A stretch of DNA of 64,000 nucleotides from Bacteroidia bacterium (GCA_965279035.1 OZ257142.1:1801239-1865238), one strand, 5' to 3'. Positions 2,577-39,624 are shown, numbered from the stretch's first letter. The notes: a model not told the origin generated them from the sequence alone. Translations and numbers: made by a program.

Positions 2577-2966
2577 GTGAAAATGAAATCGCTTTCGGGT
2601 TATTTGTTGCTGATGGTTTTCTGTCTGCGCTTCCTGCCATCGCTGGAAATGCACGACCATCGTACCTCCCATGAGCGATGCATTCAGGAGCATTTAGAAC
2701 ATCGCAATCAATATAGTTCTTGCGAATTGACTGAGGTCTTAGGATGGGATTTCGGAGGACATTGTTCCGATAAAAATCACTTGAAAGAAACCCAAAAAGA
2801 ATGCGCTTCTTGCGGTTTCGACTTTATTAAGAATTTCGATGCGGCTGTATTTTCAGTTCAAGAAGTAAGCACATTTCATTTAGCCAACATCGATTTTCCA
2901 ATCGAAAATTGCTACTCCGGATTTACCTTATTGTTATGCAATAAAGGGCCGCCTGCCTTTGCCTGA
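2577..2966 (+). CDS. Small secreted His/Cys-rich hypothetical protein, possibly metal-binding
   Basis: N-terminal hydrophobic signal-like segment. HDHRTSHERCIQEHLEHRN His-rich stretch and several Cys. It ends 50 bp upstream of the TonB-dependent receptor gene on the same strand. Confidence 0.35.
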   Translation: MKMKSLSGYLLLMVFCLRFLPSLEMHDHRTSHERCIQEHLEHRNQYSSCELTEVLGWDFGGHCSDKNHLKETQKECASCGFDFIKNFDAAVFSVQEVSTFHLANIDFPIENCYSGFTLLLCNKGPPAFA

Positions 2967-3015
2967 TATCAAATAGTACTATTCATTTCCTAATCAGGTC
3001 CAACAATTTTAAAGC

Positions 3016-5364
3016 ATGTCAATTCCATTTTCCTTTGGTAGGAAAGTGCTGACACTATTCCTGTTTCTATATATTCCTATGCATTATTGTAGTGCACAGG
3101 ATTGTGACAGTCGTTTGTTTTTGCATTTCTCCAATCCTTCTGCAAAGCCCGTTGCAGTAAAACTATTTTTCAAGAATTCAGAACGAACACTTTCGTTTAA
3201 TTCATCCATAATGCTTTCTACATTATGTCCCGGACAATACCGCATTGTTTTGCTCCAAGCAGGATATCTTCCCTTGGATACGAGTTTCACACTGGCTAAA
3301 TCTCTCGATTTAATTCTTCCACTTATTCCACGTGTGAAAGAATTGAAAGAACTTGAAATTCATGAGGATCATCTCGATCAACAAGGGCGATTAACGCTGC
3401 AATCATCTCAACTGAATGCATCACAATGGCAAGCAAATGCAGGCAAACCATTGGGCGAAATGTTGAAGGAGGCGAGTGGAGTGAGTAGTTTGCAATCGGG
3501 TCCAACCATTTCGAAACCGGTCATTCATGGTTTACATAGCAATCGGGTAGTATTGATTAACAATGGCATTCGGCTGGAAAGTCAGCAATGGGGCGCCGAA
3601 CACGCTCCGGAGATTGATCCATTTAATGTTGTGAGTGCAACAGTTTTAAAAGGAGCTGCCAGTTTACGCTATGGTTCAGATGCGATAGCAGGCGTTGTAT
3701 TACTTCAACCTAAAACGATGGATTTTGAGAAAGGCACACGAGGCGAAGTAGTTCTCAATGGAATGAGCAATGGTAGAATGGGCGCTGCATCTGCACGAAT
3801 TGAACATGCGTTTGGAGGGAAATTCAAAGGCATGGGAATTCGAATTCAAGGAACACTAAAAGATGCAGGAAATATAAAAACACCTACCTATTATTTGAAA
3901 AATACAGGCATGTGTGAAAACGATGTTTCAGCGACTTGGATGTATACGAATAAACGTGTAGCAATGGAAATTTCTGGGTCGATTTTCAAAACTCAAATCG
4001 GGATTTTTACAGGTTCACATGTGGGGAATCTCAAAGACTTGGAAGCTGCTCTTCAAAGCGTTTTTCCTAAAGATTCTTCCGGATTCTCTCGCAAAATTGA
4101 ACGTGGTTTTCAAGAAGTAAAACACGAAACATTCAAAGCACGTTTTTGCTATCATTTAAATGAATACAAACAGCTAGAAATTGTATACGGACTTCAACGC
4201 AATCACCGTCAAGAATACGATAGCGGCTTGCCTTTAAGTACCAATCCTGCGATATTAAATGCTGCTCAAGCCGACTTTTTAATTAGCACCAATACACTCG
4301 ATGTTTTGTATTCTGAGAAGCTCAATGGGTTGTATTCATTGTCGATAGGAGCAAGTTTGCTGAGTCAAGGAAATGTGTTTAAAGGATTAGAATACCGTGC
4401 ATTAATTCCCAATTTTCGAAACAATGGCGCAGGTAGTTTTATCGCGCTTTCGCGAAAGAAAAAAAGGTTGATTATCGAAGCTGGTTTACGTTACGATTAT
4501 CGCTGGTTGGAGTGTTATCGATTGGATTATACAACACTCGAAACCTTTGCAACATTGCATCAATTCCAAAATGGTTCCTTTTCACTTGGAGGCTTGTATC
4601 AATTCAACGAAAAGTTCAGCATACAGACAAATGTAGGTTCAGCATGGCGTGCACCCAACGTGAATGAATTATACGGAAACGGAGTTCATCAAAGTGCTGC
4701 TTCATTCGAAATTGGAGATAGTACTTTACTTAGCGAACGTGCTTATAATGCTATCATTTCAGGCCTTTGGGAAAGTAGTAAATCACGTTTCGAAATTGGA
4801 ATTTATCGAAATCAACTAGATCATTTCATTTTCTTAAAACCACTTCTTGTCCCAGTAATTACCATTGCCGGAGCTTATCCAGCCTTTCAACAAACTCAGG
4901 TAAATGCAGTATTCACTGGACTCGATTTCGATTTTAAAACCATCCTCTGGAGAAGTCTTAAAATAGGAGGGAAGTTGGCTCTGATTCAAGGGTATAATCG
5001 AACAATTCATGATTATTTAGTCTACACTCCTTCGAACCGAGGAGACATGTTTTTGATGATCGAAGGCAATGCGAATGAACGTGGGAAAAAGTCCTATGTC
5101 AAGTTGAGTGCTCAGTATGTAGCTCGACAAAATCATGTACCATCGAATAGCGATTATGTAGCTCCCCCGGCAGACTATTTTCTGATGAATTTCGATGCTG
5201 GATTATCAGTAGGGAAGAAGCATCCAATCGATTTGGGATTTTCAATTTACAATGTATTCAATACACAATACCGAGAGTATTTAAATCGCTTTCGGTATTT
5301 TGCAAATGAGCAGGGACGATCGTTTGTTCTAAGAATTTCTGTCCCCTTTACTCTAAAAAAATAA
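3016..5364 (+). CDS. TonB-dependent outer-membrane receptor
   Basis: Plug-domain motifs are present (LQSGPTISKPVIHGLHSNRVVLINNGIRLESQQWG..., VLKGAASLRYGSDAIAGVV). The long beta-barrel region ends in an aromatic-rich C-terminus. 782 aa. Confidence 0.85.
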   Translation: MSIPFSFGRKVLTLFLFLYIPMHYCSAQDCDSRLFLHFSNPSAKPVAVKLFFKNSERTLSFNSSIMLSTLCPGQYRIVLLQAGYLPLDTSFTLAKSLDLILPLIPRVKELKELEIHEDHLDQQGRLTLQSSQLNASQWQANAGKPLGEMLKEASGVSSLQSGPTISKPVIHGLHSNRVVLINNGIRLESQQWGAEHAPEIDPFNVVSATVLKGAASLRYGSDAIAGVVLLQPKTMDFEKGTRGEVVLNGMSNGRMGAASARIEHAFGGKFKGMGIRIQGTLKDAGNIKTPTYYLKNTGMCENDVSATWMYTNKRVAMEISGSIFKTQIGIFTGSHVGNLKDLEAALQSVFPKDSSGFSRKIERGFQEVKHETFKARFCYHLNEYKQLEIVYGLQRNHRQEYDSGLPLSTNPAILNAAQADFLISTNTLDVLYSEKLNGLYSLSIGASLLSQGNVFKGLEYRALIPNFRNNGAGSFIALSRKKKRLIIEAGLRYDYRWLECYRLDYTTLETFATLHQFQNGSFSLGGLYQFNEKFSIQTNVGSAWRAPNVNELYGNGVHQSAASFEIGDSTLLSERAYNAIISGLWESSKSRFEIGIYRNQLDHFIFLKPLLVPVITIAGAYPAFQQTQVNAVFTGLDFDFKTILWRSLKIGGKLALIQGYNRTIHDYLVYTPSNRGDMFLMIEGNANERGKKSYVKLSAQYVARQNHVPSNSDYVAPPADYFLMNFDAGLSVGKKHPIDLGFSIYNVFNTQYREYLNRFRYFANEQGRSFVLRISVPFTLKK

Positions 5365-6739: not shown

Positions 6740-8209
6740 ATGAGAGAAATAGTTCAATCGAAGTATCGTAAACTATTGCTGTTAGGATTGCTTGTGTATA
6801 TTCTAACAGCGGTTTTTAGTATTGGATATTTTCATCCAGATGAGCATTTTCAAATTCTGGAATTTTGTCAGTATAAATTAGGGAAATCTCCCCTGAGCGA
6901 TTTACCTTGGGAATACAACGAACACATGCGTCCCGCTTTGCAGCCAAGCATGGTTTTTATTCTTATTAAATTCCTACAACTCTTCCAGCTTCAAAATCCA
7001 TTTTACATAGCTAGTATTTTACGATTATTAAGTGGGATTTTAACTTGGTTTGTCACTTCTATTTTAGCAATACAGCTCCTATCTAATTTTAAAACAGAAA
7101 AGGGAAAACGAAAATTTCTTTTAGCTACTTATTTCCTGTGGTTTATTCCTTTTTTAAGTGTTCGATTTTCTTCCGAAAATTTTGCAGCCATTTTCCTGCT
7201 TGCTTCCTTGATTGTTTTTTTTAGAATTTCCCCCAATAGTAAATCGTATGTCAACTATGTATGGGTAGGAATTTTATTGGGACTTTCTTTTTTCTTTCGA
7301 TTTCAAATGGGCTTCGCCCTTCTTGGAATTGCCGCCTGGTTGCTATTCATACGACAATTAGCATTTCGAAGTATACTTATCATTGCCATCGGTGGAGTAT
7401 TATCCATAGCCTTTGGAACACTCGTCGATCGTTGGTTTTATGGCGAATGGGTGTGCACTCCTTATCAGTATTTCTTTGCCAATATCATTCAAAATAAAGC
7501 AGCCAAATTTGGGACAGAACCAATCTGGTATTATTTCAATTCCTTTTTTATTTCAGCCATTCCACCCATTAGCATTTTGCTTTTTATATTCTTATGCATT
7601 GGTTCTAAAAACAATAAAAAGGATATATTTTTATGGATACTCATTCCATTTGTCCTTGCGCATTCGCTTGTTGCTCATAAAGAAATGCGTTTTTTATTTC
7701 CTCTCATTTTTGGATTTATTTATTTAAGTGCATTGGGTTTAGATTCTATTTATCACCAATCGAAACATCTCAAATGGTGGAAATTATTTTTGCGCTTAGT
7801 GCTGATAATTAATATTCCAATTCTCTGCATTCGTTGCCTGATGCCCGCTAACGAATCCGTTGCGTATTATCGCTATATGTACAATCAGTATAACGAAAAA
7901 CCAATAACCATTTTGAGTAGAGAAAAGGAACTCTATTTCTTGAAAACGAATTTCTATAAAACTCCCGGTGTACACTCTCTCCAACTCGAAAATGATACTG
8001 CTATACGAGCCTTTTTATTGGAGAAAAATCCCAAATCAATCCTCCTGTTTGAATCCGAATTGAAAAATGGAACAATTCAATATCCCGGCTATAAACGCGA
8101 ATTAAACTTTTGCTTATTTCCGCAATGGATTCTCGATAATAATCTAAATAATTGGCAAAGCAGATCGCGCATTTGGAGCATTTGGGAATTGAAAAGAATA
8201 GAGGATTGA
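6740..8209 (+). CDS. GT-C fold glycosyltransferase, family 22-like (Alg9/PIG-B-type mannosyltransferase homolog)
   Basis: Polytopic membrane protein. The N-terminal luminal-loop motif YFHPDEHFQILEF matches the conserved HxDExFQ signature of the Glyco_transf_22 (Alg9-like) family. 489 aa with a C-terminal soluble segment. Confidence 0.6.
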   Translation: MREIVQSKYRKLLLLGLLVYILTAVFSIGYFHPDEHFQILEFCQYKLGKSPLSDLPWEYNEHMRPALQPSMVFILIKFLQLFQLQNPFYIASILRLLSGILTWFVTSILAIQLLSNFKTEKGKRKFLLATYFLWFIPFLSVRFSSENFAAIFLLASLIVFFRISPNSKSYVNYVWVGILLGLSFFFRFQMGFALLGIAAWLLFIRQLAFRSILIIAIGGVLSIAFGTLVDRWFYGEWVCTPYQYFFANIIQNKAAKFGTEPIWYYFNSFFISAIPPISILLFIFLCIGSKNNKKDIFLWILIPFVLAHSLVAHKEMRFLFPLIFGFIYLSALGLDSIYHQSKHLKWWKLFLRLVLIINIPILCIRCLMPANESVAYYRYMYNQYNEKPITILSREKELYFLKTNFYKTPGVHSLQLENDTAIRAFLLEKNPKSILLFESELKNGTIQYPGYKRELNFCLFPQWILDNNLNNWQSRSRIWSIWELKRIED

Positions 8210-8340
8210 ACACGTGAAGGGTTAAAATTATCCTCACATAATAATTATAATTAAACCCAATATTCAATGATAGTGTTAAGCTTTATTATTAGAAGATTAA
8301 ATTATTAATTAGGTTTAGAATTGAAACGGATCTTGCGATA

Positions 8341-9425
8341 TTAGCATCTAGGCTGAAACCTCACCCCCGGCCTCTCTCCACCGGGAGAGGGGAGTTTATT
8401 AAGGTACTTTTGCTGGTCTGCTTCTAAGTGTTTCGCATTTGAAAATTCAATTTCTATTACAGTTGAATGATTTACAGTAAATTGAATCTAGCTCAAAAAG
8501 TAGGATGTAAACACGGATTTAGTGCGCTAGCCTGTCTGGGCGGCGAGGCAGCGTTTCGCCATTCCTTAGAAAAATATAGCTCTTAGCACATAGGGCGAAA
8601 AAAGGCTTTGCGCGCTGAAGCATCGTCCAGACTTGAATTTCTTTGCATGCACGCTGAGCTTGTCGAAGCGTGTTTCAAGACAAGAAAGTACCACGTCGTA
8701 GACATTCATGTACAGCCCAAAAGAAAACTGAATCTCGAATTTCCCAGAATGATTATTAATATTTAAATGTAAACACGGATCTAATTCGATAGGAGACCTC
8801 ACCCCCAGCCCCTCTCCTTCCCGTAGGGACCACTAAGTGGCAGGAGAGGGGAGTTTGTTACGTTACTTGTGCTGTTCAGAATGAGCGGTCAGACTGCACT
8901 TCTCATTTTTAGAAAAATTCAATTCTAATACAGTTAAATGATTTTATTAAATAGAATCTAGCTCAAATTGTAGGATGCAAACACGTATCAAGTGCGCTGG
9001 CCTGTCTGGGCGGCGAGGCAGCGTTTCGCCATTCCTTAGAAAAATATAGCTCTTAGCACAATGGGCGAAAGAAGGCATTGTGCGCAAGCAGCATCGTCCA
9101 GACTTGAACTTCTTTATTCGTAAGTGTTTATTTTATAAAGGAACTCATGAGGGCTTCGCCGTTGCTTCCTTTCTTGTATCAAGACAAGAAAGGAAGACGT
9201 CGTAGACATTCATGTAATGACTCAAAAGAAAACTAAATTTCGAATTTCAATGAATGTTTATTGATACTAAAATGCAAAATCGAATCTTTGCAATTGCCCG
9301 TCATGCCGGTGAGGAAGTATCTTCAAGACTTGTGAATGTAAGTTGAAATTTTTCGAAGAGTTTATAAAAGCATATTTCAAGACAAGAAAGGAATACGTCT
9401 TAGACAAACATGAATGATTAATTGA
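8341..9425. repeat. Tandem array (~2.3 copies) of a ~450-500 bp non-coding unit with conserved internal hairpins
   Basis: Near-identical blocks gcgct(a/g)gcctgtctgggcggcgaggcagcgtttcgccattccttagaaaaatatagctcttagcaca at 8523 and 8993. The cctcaccccc(g/a)gcc(t/c)ctctcc...ggagaggggagttt inverted repeat occurs at 8359 and 8807. tcaagacaagaaag(t/g)a(c/a)(c/g)acgtc(g/t)tagaca occurs at 8675, 9179 and 9375. No ORF is conserved across copies. Confidence 0.7.
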
Positions 9426-9484
9426 AATAAAGCTGCCAAAGGTTTATTTTATCAATATCATATAGAATTTCAAAAGCAAACAGT

Positions 9485-10027
9485 TTAATTAACCTCAATT
9501 AATTTCATTAACTCTGATTCCTGTCTTTTAAGCATTTCTAACTCATGTTTCCACTTGAAATACAGTTTTGAAGCATTGGGCATTTCATATTTCTTCACTT
9601 CTTTTTTCTTTAATCTTAAAACGAGATTTCTCGCTTCTATTGGTTCTATTGTATTTCGACTTAATACTTCAATGGCTGTTTCTAATCGATATTTATAATC
9701 CCAGGTTTTTTCTAGTTTCTCAATCTTTTTTTCAATGGAATAAATAGTATGTTTTATTCTTCCTAATAATTTCTTTATTTCTAATTCATTTAAATCAGGT
9801 AGTGCTTTCTTTTCTAAATGCCATGCAGGATTTTCTTTCTCATGTTTTTGATACAAATCTATTATTGAATAATATTTATGCTTCGCTGAATCACTTAAAG
9901 TATATTTATTCCGATCGTTTCTCGCAATTACACTTCGAGCTACTTCAATTAACATAGCTAATTCATGTTGTTTTAGCCCCAGTGTTTCACGTTGAACTTT
10001 TCTTTCATAAGGTATACGGTCTTTCAT
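9485..10027 (-). CDS. XRE-like helix-turn-helix protein with C-terminal coiled-coil region
   Basis: The LGLKQHELAMLIEVARSVIARNDRN segment fits an XRE-family HTH. The rest is K/E-rich and predicted helical. Confidence 0.45.
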   Translation of the reverse strand: MKDRIPYERKVQRETLGLKQHELAMLIEVARSVIARNDRNKYTLSDSAKHKYYSIIDLYQKHEKENPAWHLEKKALPDLNELEIKKLLGRIKHTIYSIEKKIEKLEKTWDYKYRLETAIEVLSRNTIEPIEARNLVLRLKKKEVKKYEMPNASKLYFKWKHELEMLKRQESELMKLIEVN

Positions 10028-12918: not shown

Positions 12919-13866
12919 TTAAAACAAGTCTTCAGTCCAACGCATCGACGGGCGTTTTTCATTGAGTTTTCCTAGAATAAAACCAAGCGTGAATTCATGT
13001 GCACCGCCAGTTCTATTAGTTAAATGAGAAATTGTGTAATCGTATGAATAAGCTGCGGAAAAGTGTTTTCCGGTATAGCCAAGCATTCCAATGACTGCAT
13101 CTCCTTTTCGAATGGCACAACCAGCTTTCCATTTTCCATAGCGATACGAAATGCTTGGTAACAGCTGGTGAAATTTTTGTTCTTTTATATAAAGCATGTT
13201 AATATAAAGCCCGCTAATACGTTTACCTTCATGTTGAAAAATGCGCAATGAAGCATGAGCAGTATGGCGAATGGGAAGGCGCGAATCTGAAGTGAAACTG
13301 ATATTCGGTTGATTTATGTTTGCTGCTGAATAACCAATTAAATATCGTTTTGCATGTATCACAAGTCCAGCATTTAGCAAAGCATAATGTACAATTGGAT
13401 TTGAAATAGTTTCAGTTGAACTGTAGATAAAACCAGTGTGCGAGTCAATTTGATCACCAAATATGAGTTTTGAGAAATCAATCTTTTTTGTTGCAATGGA
13501 TGCCGATACTCCAAACCGAATACTTAAGCTTTTGTAAATCTTAAATGAGCGGGCGAGACCAATTCCAATGTTATTCGAAATGAGTGATCCACTTCCAGCA
13601 TTATCATACGTACAAAATGTCCCTAAATCAATGGGTAATTTCGCAAAACTGAAATCAGCTGCAATGTTGGTTGTATAAAACGAACCCGGTATAGAAGGCC
13701 ATTGAATGCGCTGAGCTGCTTGAATACGAATAGCTCCGCTGCTTCCTGTAAAAGCTGGATTGGTATATGTCGCAGTTCCATTATACTGTGTAAATGCTGG
13801 GTCTTGCGCATGTAGAATGGGTGTTATTAAAAGAAATATACCCAATAATTTAAACGATGTTCTCAT
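12919..13866 (-). CDS. Type IX secretion system membrane protein, PorP/SprF family
   Basis: Signal peptide followed by the family-typical QDPAFTQY...TNPAFTG N-terminal motif. 315-aa beta-barrel-like protein. Confidence 0.8.
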   Translation of the reverse strand: MRTSFKLLGIFLLITPILHAQDPAFTQYNGTATYTNPAFTGSSGAIRIQAAQRIQWPSIPGSFYTTNIAADFSFAKLPIDLGTFCTYDNAGSGSLISNNIGIGLARSFKIYKSLSIRFGVSASIATKKIDFSKLIFGDQIDSHTGFIYSSTETISNPIVHYALLNAGLVIHAKRYLIGYSAANINQPNISFTSDSRLPIRHTAHASLRIFQHEGKRISGLYINMLYIKEQKFHQLLPSISYRYGKWKAGCAIRKGDAVIGMLGYTGKHFSAAYSYDYTISHLTNRTGGAHEFTLGFILGKLNEKRPSMRWTEDLF

Positions 13867-34408: not shown

Positions 34409-34460
34409 TTTTTTGAATACAATTTATCTACTATTAAACTCGCAATTTATTGTTTTATTT

Positions 34461-34625
34461 TTTATTCTCCGGATTGAAATCCGAGGTTGCGGGGGTGGGG
34501 ATTATCTACGTCTTATTCATTTATTAGCCGGATTGAAATCCGGGGTTGCGGGGTTTTATTATCTACATCTTATTCATTTATTCCCCGGATTGAAATCCGG
34601 GGTTGCCATTTCATTAATAAATCAT
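34461..34625 (+). repeat. Tandem ~58-bp repeat (2.7 copies) built around the palindrome ccggattgaaatccgg
   Basis: ccggattgaaatccg(a/g)ggttgc at 34468, 34527 and 34583, each followed by the similar attatctac(g/a)tcttattcatttatt. Confidence 0.8.
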
Positions 34626-34663
34626 GTATTAACGAATCAGCATACCAGCACACCAGCACATCA

Positions 34664-34990
34664 GCACACCAGTTTAATGTGCTAATCCGATAGCTATCGG
34701 ATAGTTGATGTGCTAATGTGCTTATGGAAAGATCAAATCTGCAACTTTCCGGTAACCTAACAGCACACTAATTCAATGTGCTAATCCGATAGCTATCGGA
34801 TAGTTGATATGCTAAAGTGCTAATGGAAAAACACAGCTCCAACCTTCAAGTAGCCTAACAGCACATCAGCATATCAGCACACCATTAAATCAATTCAATG
34901 TGCTAATTCGATAGCTATCGGATAGTTGATGTGCTAATGAACTAATGGAAAAGAACACTGCTCAAACATAACGCTAACATTTTGCAAACA
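34664..34990 (+). repeat. Three tandem copies of a ~110-bp REP/MITE-like element with core palindrome ATCCGATAGCTATCGGAT
   Basis: Core aatgtgctaat(c/t)cgatagctatcggatagttgat(g/a)tgcta at 34676, 34785 and 34897. Each copy carries a ctaacagcaca(c/t)cagca(c/t)a(c/t)cagcacacc tail. Confidence 0.8.
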
Positions 34991-35834: not shown

Positions 35835-35965
35835 CCTATTTCACACCATCAAATCAAATTAATGTGCTAATCCGATAGCTATCGGATAGCTAATATGCTA
35901 ATGTGCAGATGAAAAAGAAAACTGCTGCAACTTTCCGGTAACCTAACAGCACACCAGCACACCAT
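35835..35965 (+). repeat. Fourth copy of the ~110-bp palindromic REP-like element
   Basis: aatgtgctaatccgatagctatcggatagctaatatgctaatgtgc...ctaacagcacaccagcacaccatcacatc. Confidence 0.8.
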
Positions 35966-37079: not shown

Positions 37080-38060
37080 CTATTTGCTTTTGTGACGCAC
37101 TACACTCAATGGCCCATCAATGCGGTTCCCATCGGGTAAAATCAATTCGAATTGATACGTTCCACTGGGCAAACCAGCACCATCCCAATCGTTTCGATAA
37201 TTATCCGTTTTAAAAACAACCAGGTCTTTTTTATTTCGAATCGTTAAACGACTATAGCGAGGCAATCCTTCGATATAAAATAAATCATTAAATCCATCTC
37301 CATTGGGTGTAACCACTTCGGGAACGTGCATGCGACCTGCTGGTAATATTTCACCCGAAGGAGGAGCGATAACCTGCACTTCGGTTGGTTTTTCTACTTC
37401 AGGTGTACAGCTACCTAAATACACATTGTCCACATAGAGATAGGCCAAACGAATGTATTGTGTTTGATCATTTGGCTGAAGATTCGTACTTGCATCGTTA
37501 CGGAAATTACCAATGGTGACAAACTGTTCACCTCCTTTAGCTTTGAATGTAAAGGATAGGATTTTCCAAGTTTTTCCTGTATCCGAAATGGCAAGGTATT
37601 TTTGACTTTTGAATTCTGGTTCGCGGATAATGGTGTTCCAGTCGTTCGAGCGTATGGAATCTTTGCTAAGCGCGATGCCCAATTCATCGGTAAAATAGCT
37701 CGATTTTTCTGCTGCCGAAACGGAGATTTTTAAACACAATTCTTCACCCGGAATGAGCATTCTGCTTAATCGAACTTCGAGGTATTCTCTGAAATTGGGA
37801 TTGTCGGCATCGTAAAGTATCAAGCCGGCAAACTGTTGTCCTTCAGCAGCCTTTTGCTTTCCATGTGGCACCTCTCCCGGTTTGATTAAATCGGGACTAC
37901 CAATTCCTGCAGGAAACCAAGGACTTGCCTGCTCAATATTTCCTGAATATTTCGATTTTACAGGCTTCAACGAACGTTCGAAGCTCCCATTGGGTATCAA
38001 ATTCTGCCCACAAACAGGCAGCACAGAAAGTAGAAAAATTATGGTCAGGAAGCGAATCAT
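37080..38060 (-). CDS. T9SS cargo protein with type-B (gliding-motility-associated) C-terminal domain
   Basis: Signal peptide. C-terminal VTPNGDGFNDLFYIEGLPRYSRLTIRNK...NYRNDWDG...GTYQFEL matches the TIGR04131-type CTD. Confidence 0.7.
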   Translation of the reverse strand: MIRFLTIIFLLSVLPVCGQNLIPNGSFERSLKPVKSKYSGNIEQASPWFPAGIGSPDLIKPGEVPHGKQKAAEGQQFAGLILYDADNPNFREYLEVRLSRMLIPGEELCLKISVSAAEKSSYFTDELGIALSKDSIRSNDWNTIIREPEFKSQKYLAISDTGKTWKILSFTFKAKGGEQFVTIGNFRNDASTNLQPNDQTQYIRLAYLYVDNVYLGSCTPEVEKPTEVQVIAPPSGEILPAGRMHVPEVVTPNGDGFNDLFYIEGLPRYSRLTIRNKKDLVVFKTDNYRNDWDGAGLPSGTYQFELILPDGNRIDGPLSVVRHKSK

Positions 38061-38084: not shown

Positions 38085-38435
38085 AGTGTGCTGATGTGCT
38101 AGTTTTTTGATGTGCTAGTTTTCCCGATTGCAATCGGGAGATGTACTAGTTTGTAGCTGCAGTATACCTCCCGCATCCCCGGATTTCAATCCGGGGGGAG
38201 ATTACCCTAATCTTTCACATCGCCCCAATCTCTCAATCACCCGCTTCGACAAGCTCAGCGGGCGGACTCTAGTCTTTCTCTAACCTAAGAGCACACCAAC
38301 CCACCATCACATCACTTTAATGTGCTAATCCGATAGCTATCGGATAGCTAATGTGCTCATGTGCTGATGGAAAAGAACACTGCTCCAACCTCGCACTAAC
38401 CTAACATCACATCATCACACCATCACACCAGCCTT
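38085..38435. repeat. Composite repeat block: inverted copy of the ccggattgaaatccgg element plus a fifth copy of the 110-bp palindromic element
   Basis: ccccggatttcaatccgggggg (38169-38190) is the reverse complement of the 34.5-kb repeat. The palindrome cccgattgcaatcggg is at 38135. The core aatgtgctaatccgatagctatcggatagctaatgtgct is at 38319, with a cacaccatcacaccagc tail. Confidence 0.75.
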
Positions 38436-38445
38436 TAGACTTGCA

Positions 38446-38643
38446 CTATTATTTTAGTTGAGATATCTTGACTGAAAATAAACAAAGAAACGGGGTGAAC
38501 TATCTCATCAGCTAGGTCTTTAAATCCCTAAGGTGTGTATGAGTCCCCGTTTCCTTTAACCATGTTGTTAATGGCCAGCTAGAATTTTAGACTTCGAGAT
38601 CTATTAAAGGTTTTAGCCAAGAGCAACACTTAAAAACAAAAGT
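38446..38643 (+). ncRNA. Candidate bridge (seek) RNA encoded in the IS110 non-coding 5' end
   Basis: ~200 bp non-coding left end upstream of the recombinase. This is the position where IS110-group elements (e.g. IS621) encode their structured bridge RNA. It contains the internal complementary segments gaaacggggtg / cccgtttcc. Confidence 0.35.
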
Positions 38644-39624
38644 ATGAAGAAGAACTTTATTGGCATTGATGTGTCAAAATTAACGCTGGATGTTTATTTA
38701 CATAATCAATCTCAGCACAACGTCTTTAGCAATGATATCGATGGTTATACACTGATGCTTGCTTGGTTAAAGCAGTTGAAAGTGAGTGTAAAATCGATGG
38801 CCATTTGCTTTGAGCATACGGGTATTTATAGCGAGGATTTATCTGTGTTTTTGAGTGAAAAGAAGATCTGTTTTTACATGGAATCCTCCTTAAACATTAA
38901 GTATTCTATTGGACTTCAGCGAGGCAAAAATGATAAGATAGACTCCCAAAGAATCGCAAATTTCATTGCATTACATGCAGAACAGCTTAGCCCAACGGTA
39001 CTATCAAAGAGTGCTGTAGCGCAGCTGAGAAAGCTCTTGAGTATGCGTTCGCATCTGGAAAAAGAGAAGATAGGCATCAAAAACAGACTTAAGAACTCAT
39101 CAAAAACCACTGGTGTAGATATAGTTTTTCAAATCGAAACGGATCTGTTAAAGACCTTTAACGATAAACTTAAACTGGTAGAAGAGGAAATCAAATCATT
39201 GATAAAGTCAGATGATAATCTTCGTCAAATCGACGAATTAGTTCAATCTATAAAAGGAGTTGGACCAGTGTCGAGTTGGTATTTAATCGCCACAACAAAT
39301 GGCTTTGAATACTTCGACAATGCTCGTCAATATGCATGTTATAGTGGAATAGCTCCATTCGAAAAATCATCAGGAACATCCATAAAAGGGAAAACACAAA
39401 CCGATAGAAGATCAAATCGAAAAATCAATGGAGTATTAACAATGGCGGCGCGTTCGGCAGTATTAAATAACACCGAAATGAGAGAATATATGGAGCGTAA
39501 AATCCAGGAAGGAAAACATTATAATTGTGCACTCAATGCAGTCAAAAACAAACTTGTATCAAGAGTATTTGCTGTCGTAAAAAGAAAAACACCCTATGTT
39601 GATCTAAAAAAATACGCTGCATAG
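38644..39624 (+). CDS. IS110-family transposase
   Basis: N-terminal FIGIDVSKLTLDVY (DEDD/RuvC-like N-domain). The C-terminal KGVGPVSSWYLIATTNGF...SGIAPFEKSSGTS block is typical of IS110/IS116/IS902 transposases. Confidence 0.85.
   Translation: MKKNFIGIDVSKLTLDVYLHNQSQHNVFSNDIDGYTLMLAWLKQLKVSVKSMAICFEHTGIYSEDLSVFLSEKKICFYMESSLNIKYSIGLQRGKNDKIDSQRIANFIALHAEQLSPTVLSKSAVAQLRKLLSMRSHLEKEKIGIKNRLKNSSKTTGVDIVFQIETDLLKTFNDKLKLVEEEIKSLIKSDDNLRQIDELVQSIKGVGPVSSWYLIATTNGFEYFDNARQYACYSGIAPFEKSSGTSIKGKTQTDRRSNRKINGVLTMAARSAVLNNTEMREYMERKIQEGKHYNCALNAVKNKLVSRVFAVVKRKTPYVDLKKYAA

Follow-up and report, generated by a model that had tools for sequence, protein, structure and literature searches.

Locus and repeat array

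The window analysed here—the whole 64-kb stretch of DNA—contains a gap of 1275 bp (8210-9484) between two convergent genes. On the left, the gap is bordered by a Glyco_transf_22 gene (6740-8209, + strand), and on the right by a gene encoding a 180-amino-acid, HTH-like protein (9485-10027, - strand). In agreement with an initial sequence-only reading, which had proposed some 2.3 copies of a long tandem unit in this gap, we found an array of three units at 8340-9430, of which those at 8340-8790 and 8778-9290 are full and the one at 9270-9430 is decayed and partial, with start-to-start distances of 470 and 504 bp. The units could be aligned over their full length with several indels using MAFFT, and in the three-unit alignment ~70 nt at the centre are missing from the third one. 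The longest exact block of the full units spans 61 nt (8530-8590, identical to 9000-9060) and forms part of a 68-bp block that had been correctly described as differing at one or two bases. A repeat search further resolved several families of shared segments, i.e., D1, a stretch of 138 nt with 91% identity between 8478-8615 and 8948-9085 (spacing of 470); D2, the motif caagacaagaaag...cgtcgtagaca, the three occurrences of which were located, as anticipated, at 8671, 9175 and 9373; and D4/D6, the two halves of a GC-rich hairpin (8355-8418 and 8793-8877). A 40-mer, a 30-mer motif and the hairpin arm, taken from the sub-blocks noted in the sequence-only reading, were confined to the array within the 64 kb, with zero occurrences expected by chance from shuffled sequences. 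Tandem Repeats Finder reported no array—a miss that we attribute to the large indels by which the copies differ and to a period close to the limit of the tool.

No conserved ORF was found in the gap, where the only ORFs present (40-78 aa) differ from unit to unit, and an ARAGORN search of the window yielded 0 tRNA or tmRNA genes. The array does not follow the CRISPR pattern of near-identical repeats of 24-48 nt with unique spacers either, its units being 440-500 bp long and homologous throughout; the early judgement that the units are too long for CRISPR and non-coding holds.

The nearest relative of the flanking glycosyltransferase, with 67% amino acid identity, belongs to a Flavobacteriales MAG. 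The gene order of this relative, observed in four contigs, is glycosyltransferase, a 176-aa gene (86% amino acid identity) and a SusC-like TonB receptor. Since only 11 bp separate the two convergent genes there, the whole 1275-bp block (to which no strand was assigned) is specific to the lineage of the window.

Organization of the three copies

Similarity between the window and another contig, L020, as detected by BLAST, delimits a conserved element of ~270-315 nt, located at 8906-9220 and, in the first unit, at 8459-8710. Three copies, all on the + strand, were delineated on this basis. The first, W1 (8436-8713; nhmmer match at 8483-8606), comprises leader, core and tail, and the second, W2 (8906-9220; BLAST matches to L020 at 8906-9115 and 9162-9220, nhmmer match at 8954-9076), is the most complete. 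The third, W3 (9270-9430), consists of a mutated 5' part, GCCCGTCATGCCGGTGAGGA, fused directly to AGTATCTTCAAGACTTG; it went undetected by the core HMM in nhmmer and carries the motif variant caagacaagaaag...cgtcttagaca at 9377-9406. Both the long-range complementarity GTCTGG/CCAGAC (helix P1) and the GGCGA...TCGCC hairpin, two elements of the sequence-only reading, were recovered in each full unit. In W1, P1 pairs GTCTGG (8534-8539) with CCAGAC (8627-8632), thereby closing a domain (8534-8632, + strand) that encloses the 25-mer GGCGGCGAGGCAGCGTTTCGCCATT (8539-8563), a 33-nt spacer and GGCGAAA; the corresponding domain of W2 (9004-9103, + strand) has P1 at 9004-9009/9098-9103 and the 25-mer at 9009-9033. 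A terminal hairpin, CTTCCTTTCTTGT/ACAAGAAAGGAAG, follows in W2 (9165-9196, + strand), with 13 bp, a loop of ATCAAG and arms that are 100% complementary (inverted repeat I3). The right arm of this hairpin and the adjoining ACGTCGTAGACA are kept in W1 and W3, with the left arm gone in both cases. Because it lacks this left arm, W1 is probably impaired, and the same loss, together with the remnant state of W3, indicates that part of the array is decaying. We infer from these features that W2 represents the intact copy, W1 a damaged one and W3 a remnant.

Two GC-rich hairpins on the + strand accompany the copies. Hairpin 1 (CCTCACCCCCGGCCTCTCTCC/GGAGAGGGGAG, then TTTATT; 8355-8394; families D4/D6) contains the cccctctcc/ggagagggg pairing that had been singled out previously and, in a terminator scan, scored as an intrinsic-terminator-like structure, with a GC-rich stem-loop at 8371-8392 plus the T-run AGTTTATT. 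Hairpin 2 (8797-8853, arms at 8809-8821/8839-8851; I4, D4 and D6 in the repeat search) has a 17-nt loop and drew no terminator call at 8809-8851; just 5' of it, at ~8766-8795, lies a short piece that resembles, by eye, the 5' part of the core. The cccctctcc/ggagagggg hairpins were found in none of the related loci described below, which suggests that the duplicated unit is composed of a terminator-like hairpin, an AT-rich leader, the core and a tail. The 470-bp unit is thus to be narrowed: the core of ~270-315 nt is conserved, and the cccctctcc hairpin and much else constitute window-specific packaging. Upstream of the element, no convincing conserved promoter of the Bacteroidota type was found; the partial matches spotted by eye—TACTTTTG at 8404-8411, 3' of hairpin 1, and TTTG-N19-ACAATTTG ahead of GTTAGAG in L001 and L005—are at chance level in AT-rich DNA.

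Homologues of the core fall into two types

To gain a broader view of the distribution of the element, we scanned one genome per species with the 22-mer GGCGGCGAGGCAGCGTTTCGCC as query, which returned five true copies in Bacteroidia/Flavobacteriales MAGs—one MAG holding three copies (L001-L003)—and one chance match in a coding region. A metagenome scan with the inner 18-mer added six true copies among ~90 chance matches in GC-rich DNA. Altogether, the scans identified 11 further true copies, spread over about ten contigs of Flavobacteriales/Bacteroidia MAGs or of metagenomes, so that about a dozen are known, all of them retrieved through one exact word. Two core patterns gave 0 hits in viral contigs, BLAST searches of phage and plasmid collections returned no core, with the terminal hairpin module of type B (see below) as the only match, and nothing relevant was found in the literature on the core and hairpin sequences. 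A lack of conservation outside this strain, which the sequence-only reading had named as the sign of decaying duplicated junk, can be set aside, as the core recurs at other loci and in other lineages.

All true copies display the same order of blocks, namely AGTGCG(C/T)T, the 6-nt GTYYRG, the 25-mer (inside which the GGCGA...TCGCC hairpin sits), a weakly conserved spacer of exactly 33 nt, GGCGAAAnAAnGC, AGCATCG, the complementary CYRRAC, TTGA and a stable hairpin. The conserved core blocks accordingly include AGTGCGCT, the GTCTGG/CCAGAC helix, the hairpin-bearing 25-mer, the 33-nt spacer, GGCGAAA, AGCATCG and the terminal hairpin. The short type A is represented twice in the window and once in L020 (equal to L099). 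The longer type B (L001, L002, L003, L005, L006, L011, L018 and L096, with L048 truncated) possesses an insertion of ~60 nt forming a ATCGAAAAAAA/TTTTTTTCGAT helix, as well as a longer 3' part. Unrelated housekeeping genes flank the element at every locus, and no locus is syntenic with the window. L020 and the empty-site contig of the array-less relative, L103, share one sample and have similar coverage (14x and 17x, respectively), and the relative may carry a type-A copy at another locus—a suggestion for which the identity of the sample is the sole basis. Two of the other loci show repeats of their own: in L020, a second copy of a 50-nt stretch from the 5' part lies 128 nt upstream, and in L001, a 119-nt segment with a different terminator-like hairpin lies on both sides of the element, an arrangement that is similar to that in the window and arose independently of it.

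As far as the terminal hairpin module of type B is concerned, a 40-mer with 86-91% identity to it, CTTGAACTTTTGGTTACTTTTCTTTCAAGAGAAAAGTAAC, is 100% identical between Ilyobacter polytropus pILYOP01 (L104 2610-3045) and Parabacteroides distasonis (L105 2478-3044), and thus spans replicons of the Fusobacterium group and Bacteroidales. There are 22 places matching CTTGAACTTTTGGTTACTTTTCTTTCAAGAGAAAAGTAAC in Ilyobacter, with a unit of ~430 bp and the module inverted at both ends; in Parabacteroides, a 'smalltalk protein' gene is flanked by an inverted repeat of 168 nt, at the end of which CTTGAACTTTTGGTTACTTTTCTTTCAAGAGAAAAGTAAC is found. Rfam searches of these Ilyobacter and Parabacteroides loci produced no match.

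Conservation between types A and B is concentrated in segments that can pair, as the sequence-only reading had held. The identity amounts to 69% from AGTGCG through P1, 88% in GGCGAAAnAAnGC and 83% from AGCATCG through the P1 partner to ACTTGA, as opposed to the 38-39%, essentially random, of leader and spacer. For the 25-mer, the identity is 99-100%; as 18-22 of these positions served as the search key, however, the invariance was built into the search and is no evidence of selection. On the alignments compared, the other blocks, the block order and the constant length of the spacer provide independent evidence of homology and constraint. A coding function was considered and rejected, as stops occur in all frames of the spacer and no ORF is conserved. 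Among individual candidates, a 25-aa ORF in the type-B insertion is unconserved (by eye, in the alignment), ORFs of 117-125 aa are open in L001 and L005 only, and a spurious - strand ORF over type B, used as a protein query, matched only itself.

Structural evidence for a probable RNA read from the + strand

In the alignment of the nine full copies (A4), all seven pairs of P1 are formed in each of the nine sequences. Two of the seven pairs changed on both sides (U-A to C-G and G-C to A-U), with U-G intermediates in L001 and L005/L096, and sliding the partner strand by 1-3 columns lowers pairing to 38-55%. The long-range helix first noted from sequence is thus kept in the relatives by compensatory changes; independent covariation events are few, since the double changes represent one split (A versus B), complemented by two wobbles, in nine sequences. 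The inner hairpin GGCGAGGC-AGC-GUUUCGCC is invariant and, as such, uninformative on pairing, and the same holds for the other possible partner of UUUCGCC, GGCGAAA, on the far side of the 33-nt spacer. The terminal hairpin is perfect in W2; in L020, two double changes (CATAC.../...GTATG) leave its pairing intact, and its sequence differs in type B. Moreover, the helix of the type-B insertion in L018 gained one A and one T together.

The wobble variants are G-U on the + strand, equivalent to C-A mismatches on the other strand, and the invariant hairpin includes two G-U pairs. Since P1 stays paired through double substitutions and G-U intermediates, an RNA read from the + strand is favoured. Folding of the 241-nt segment of W2 gave z = -3.4 on the + strand versus -2.6 on the - strand; the 121-nt core of W1 folds no better than shuffled sequences (z = -1.6). 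In the cassette arrays described in the next section, the element has the same sense orientation as the recombinase and the genes of the cassettes.

The comparison with known RNA families, proposed at the outset as a check, brought no match. Rfam 15 gave 0 hits in the window at the gathering threshold; with E values up to 10, only miRNA, snoRNA and hairpin noise appeared at 8150-9550 and at L011 1370-2040, and searches of L001-L006 revealed nothing at the element. A group II intron, an idea that arose from the GTGCG on the 5' side, was discarded on account of its wrong size and the absence of a group II match in Rfam.

Some type-B relatives resemble mobile gene cassettes

Four of the type-B copies (type B1: L011, L002, L003 and L006) contain no ORF and have a G|TTAG junction at their start. 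The first nucleotides of the element in L011 and L002 are GTTAGAGGTAATGCCC, and GGGCACAACCTCTAAC, complementary to this start at 14/16 positions, is reached ~500 nt on. What follows GGGCACAACCTCTAAC is an imperfect, attC-like palindrome of ~130 nt with CTAAC...GTTAG ends, termed X (L011 1882-2035 and L002 1592-1748), which is also found four times in L003 and once in L106. A neighbouring unit in L003 starts with GTTAGTGGC and its X with GCCACTAAC; likewise, the first unit of L106 starts with GTTAGTAGC and its X with GCTACTAA. In the sequences of L011/L002, L003 and L106, the complementarity between unit start and X start conforms to the boundary rule of integron cassettes. Besides, L003 harbours small genes of the kind that cassette arrays usually contain (glyoxalase/bleomycin-resistance fold, SRPBCC, TfoX and HxlR). 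Inside this cassette-like array we also observed two matches to the DUF805b RNA motif, at 2413-2445 and 3134-3166 (39.1 and 29.6 bits, with a gathering threshold of 35.6).

In L006, the element lies 112 nt past the gene of a 378-aa tyrosine recombinase (2636-3772) as the first unit there. The recombinases of L106, L107 and L108 are 96-97% identical to that of L006, and the four contigs share their downstream DNA up to ...GTGTAAGA(G/T)AGTTAG, after which a Fic gene or other content follows. This combination of a fixed junction and variable first cassettes amounts to attI-like behaviour. The L006 recombinase reached 197 bits with TIGR02249 ('integron integrase'; curated cut-off, 265), in a match split into two stretches, and 211 bits with NF040815 ('tyrosine recombinase/integron integrase'; curated cut-off, 220); its closest solved structures are XerA/XerC-like, followed by IntI4. 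Because of the scores below cut-off, the split match and the proximity to XerA, we refer to the system—found on the Flavobacteriales/Bacteroidia contigs L006 (2636-3884), L106 (470-3083), L107, L108 and L003 (140-7202)—as integron-like and not as an integron. The recombinase family is common in Bacteroidota, with 7799 matches at E<1e-40.

An HMM of the X/X' modules detected no X module in the window, nor in L020, L001, L005 or L096. Two scans of the window for attC-like palindromes found nothing, though both missed their positive controls; the window likewise contains no G|TT start with a complementary attC inverse core, no recombinase of the L006 type and no inverted termini in the array. Around the window units and L020 there are neither target-site duplications nor inverted termini of the kind expected of a MITE, and for the only inverted termini seen, those of type B1, the cassette rule offers a better explanation than a MITE. 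A further complementarity links the spacer of L011 (1494-1514) with the centre of its palindrome (1928-1948) at 19/21 nt (90%), and is weaker, by eye, in L002; TTAAGCAG occurs twice in the type-B element and CTGCTTAA in the palindrome.

Gene-less (ORF-less) integron cassettes are known from Vibrionaceae superintegrons and from an oral metagenome (PMC11014356; PMC6557892). Type B1 resembles them in having no ORF, a G|TTAG start and a 3' palindrome of ~130 nt (AAC...GTT), and the L006 copy does so in being the first unit after a tyrosine recombinase, whereas the copies of the window, L001 and L005/L096 are free-standing, with no attC-like module and no recombinase nearby. Promoter activity has been demonstrated for several gene-less cassettes (PMC11014356), and a conserved structured core in such cassettes is not described in the literature examined (PMC11014356). 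What has been shown for the known examples is a role as promoters and not, as proposed here, as conserved structured RNAs.

Interpretation of the array and alternative explanations

The reading that we prefer, and to which we give an even chance, is that a rare mobile element, duplicated in tandem and decayed in part, occupies the gap, and that its core would function at the RNA level. The core is a real, conserved, rare and mobile non-coding element that is absent from Rfam, its mobility following from the empty site in the relative, the non-syntenic copies and the cassette-like long form. Comparison of the copies establishes that the core is conserved across lineages and its genomic position is not, with the predicted helices maintained, and the core probably encodes a structured RNA. 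This RNA, most likely transcribed from the + strand of the ~270-315-nt core, would contain a domain closed by GTCTGG/CCAGAC that holds the conserved hairpin region, and then the stable terminal hairpin. We infer that the element reached the lineage of the window as an insertion and was amplified there by tandem duplication or unequal recombination, along with the terminator-like hairpin and the AT-rich leader. In other Bacteroidota, the core would move as a gene-less cassette of the integron-like system, which would offer a route for horizontal spread. As a guess, the product could act in trans or bind a protein, in preference to regulating a gene in cis.

A purely DNA-level mobile element, i.e., the remnant of a cassette or MITE in which the hairpins are recombinase sites and any transcript is incidental, is the strongest alternative, and a possible one, although we consider it less probable. 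Hairpins and inverted repeats are also expected of a substrate of DNA-level recombination or transposition; a 16-nt inverted repeat (14/16) delimits the long form, with the attC-like palindrome after it, and the L006 copy sits at a variable junction beside an XerA/IntI-like recombinase. The non-syntenic copies and the empty site agree with such an element, as do the partial copies W3, L048 and the upstream fragment of L020, all with a breakpoint within or next to the conserved hairpin, and the tandem or partial copies in independent lineages, i.e., the window, L020 and L001 with its 119-nt flanking repeats. In a transposon or cassette, however, the parts expected to be under selection are the ends. 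The core occurs in two settings, free-standing and cassette-borne, which have the internal blocks in common but not the ends; conservation between types A and B is poor at the ends (the GTTAG... region) and retained in the internal blocks, the reverse of that expectation, and it is for this reason that we rank a core acting as RNA above a substrate acting only as DNA. Furthermore, the window copies, L020, L001 and L005/L096 have neither the attC-like module nor inverted termini, the window has no recombinase of that type, and the helix mismatches are G-T on one strand only.

An RNA-level core could be taken further, to a new RNA class that exists free-standing and as a cassette mobilised by the XerA-like system, with the RNA acting on this system or on the host, e.g., through pairing between spacer and palindrome; this extension is speculative and, in our estimation, somewhat unlikely. 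If the core is a real RNA, a new family of structured RNAs would be added from environmental Flavobacteriales, which have been little studied, and a single non-coding module would be an ordinary chromosomal locus in some cases and a gene-less cassette in others—with implications, if true, for the roles of gene-less cassettes beyond promoters and for the origin of cassettes. If it is a DNA-level repeat only, the array is ordinary intergenic mobile clutter in an AT-rich genome.

Several known kinds of elements share part of these features. Modular or MITE-like intergenic repeats that fold as RNA include the pneumococcal BOX, the Correia/NEMIS elements of Neisseria, the enterobacterial ERIC and REP/BIME. 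Like them, the element is multi-copy and intergenic, often lies between convergent genes, and has hairpin modules and both partial and tandem copies; its type-B terminal hairpin is also present in repeats of other phyla. Unlike them, it has very low copy numbers and a much longer unit (270-640 nt), is conserved in internal blocks and not at its termini, and shows no target-site duplication. Tandemly duplicated small-RNA genes form families such as PrrF1/PrrF2, Qrr and LhrC, which the two adjacent, near-identical non-coding units of the window recall, each with a terminator-like hairpin and an AT-rich leader, yet the family found here is mobile and non-syntenic and shows no seed, target or regulator site. 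The large structured RNA candidates of Rfam are similar in size (250-500 nt), in the long-range helix closing around conserved hairpins and in their occurrence in metagenomic Bacteroidota, but no Rfam 15 model matches the element.

The view that the array is neutral, decaying, strain-specific duplicated junk draws on the remnant W3, the hairpin arm missing from W1 and the empty site in the nearest relative. Cross-lineage conservation largely excludes it, the core being present in other orders, samples and loci with ordered blocks and maintained helices, and we regard it as improbable. A cis-regulatory RNA of a neighbouring gene (riboswitch, leader or 3'-UTR element) is very unlikely: the element is structured and lies downstream of the glycosyltransferase gene on the same strand, but a terminator-like hairpin stands between the two, the neighbours have no common function, no riboswitch of Rfam matches, and the next gene is convergent in the window and in five of six other loci (L001, L002, L005/L096 and L020). 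Of the original suggestions, that of a structured RNA gene stands as regards its non-coding nature, the conservation of pairable segments and the conservation elsewhere, and is unlikely as regards a riboswitch-like role; nothing in the window points to an attachment site. Lastly, we regard an orphan RNA of the guide or bridge type, belonging to an IS110-family element or one like it, as scarcely credible. In its favour, the window contains an IS110-family transposase gene (38644-39624), similar internal 8-mers exist (TTAAGCAG, present twice in type B, and AAACACG/TAGCACA, in type A), and complementarity links a 9-mer in the spacer of W1 to a motif that occurs seven times near the IS. That 9-mer match, however, is imperfect in W2 and L020, the IS lies 29 kb away with a non-coding end (38438-38643) unlike the element, and no IS110 gene adjoins the element in the 11 other loci.

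Other features of the window

A second repeat region of the window (34440-34950, also 35862-35870 and 38090-38420) contains runs of CAGCACA(C/T) as well as three units with the hairpin CCGGATTGAAATCCGG and three units of AATGTGCTAATCCGATAGCTATCGGATAGTTGATGTGCTAA. The 9-mer ATGTGCTAA occurs seven times in this region, with 0.76 occurrences expected in the window, and a sequence complementary to it is found at 8583-8591, within the W1 spacer of 33 nt—a match that is probably coincidental. The IS110-family element (38438-39623, with its gene at 38644-39624), which encodes DEDD_Tnp_IS110 and Transposase_20 domains and has AGACTTGCA at both ends, is inserted into a CAGCACA/ATGTGCTAA repeat unit. 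Its 5' non-coding end of ~205 nt, where a bridge RNA would be located, has no Rfam match. Further downstream, a giant ORF (39951-61157) encodes 7068 aa with PATR repeats in the first 2000 aa, and an adhesin, surface-located or secreted, is the probable product; genes for type IX secretion lie nearby, encoding CHU_C (37080-38060) and PorP/SprF (12919-13866).
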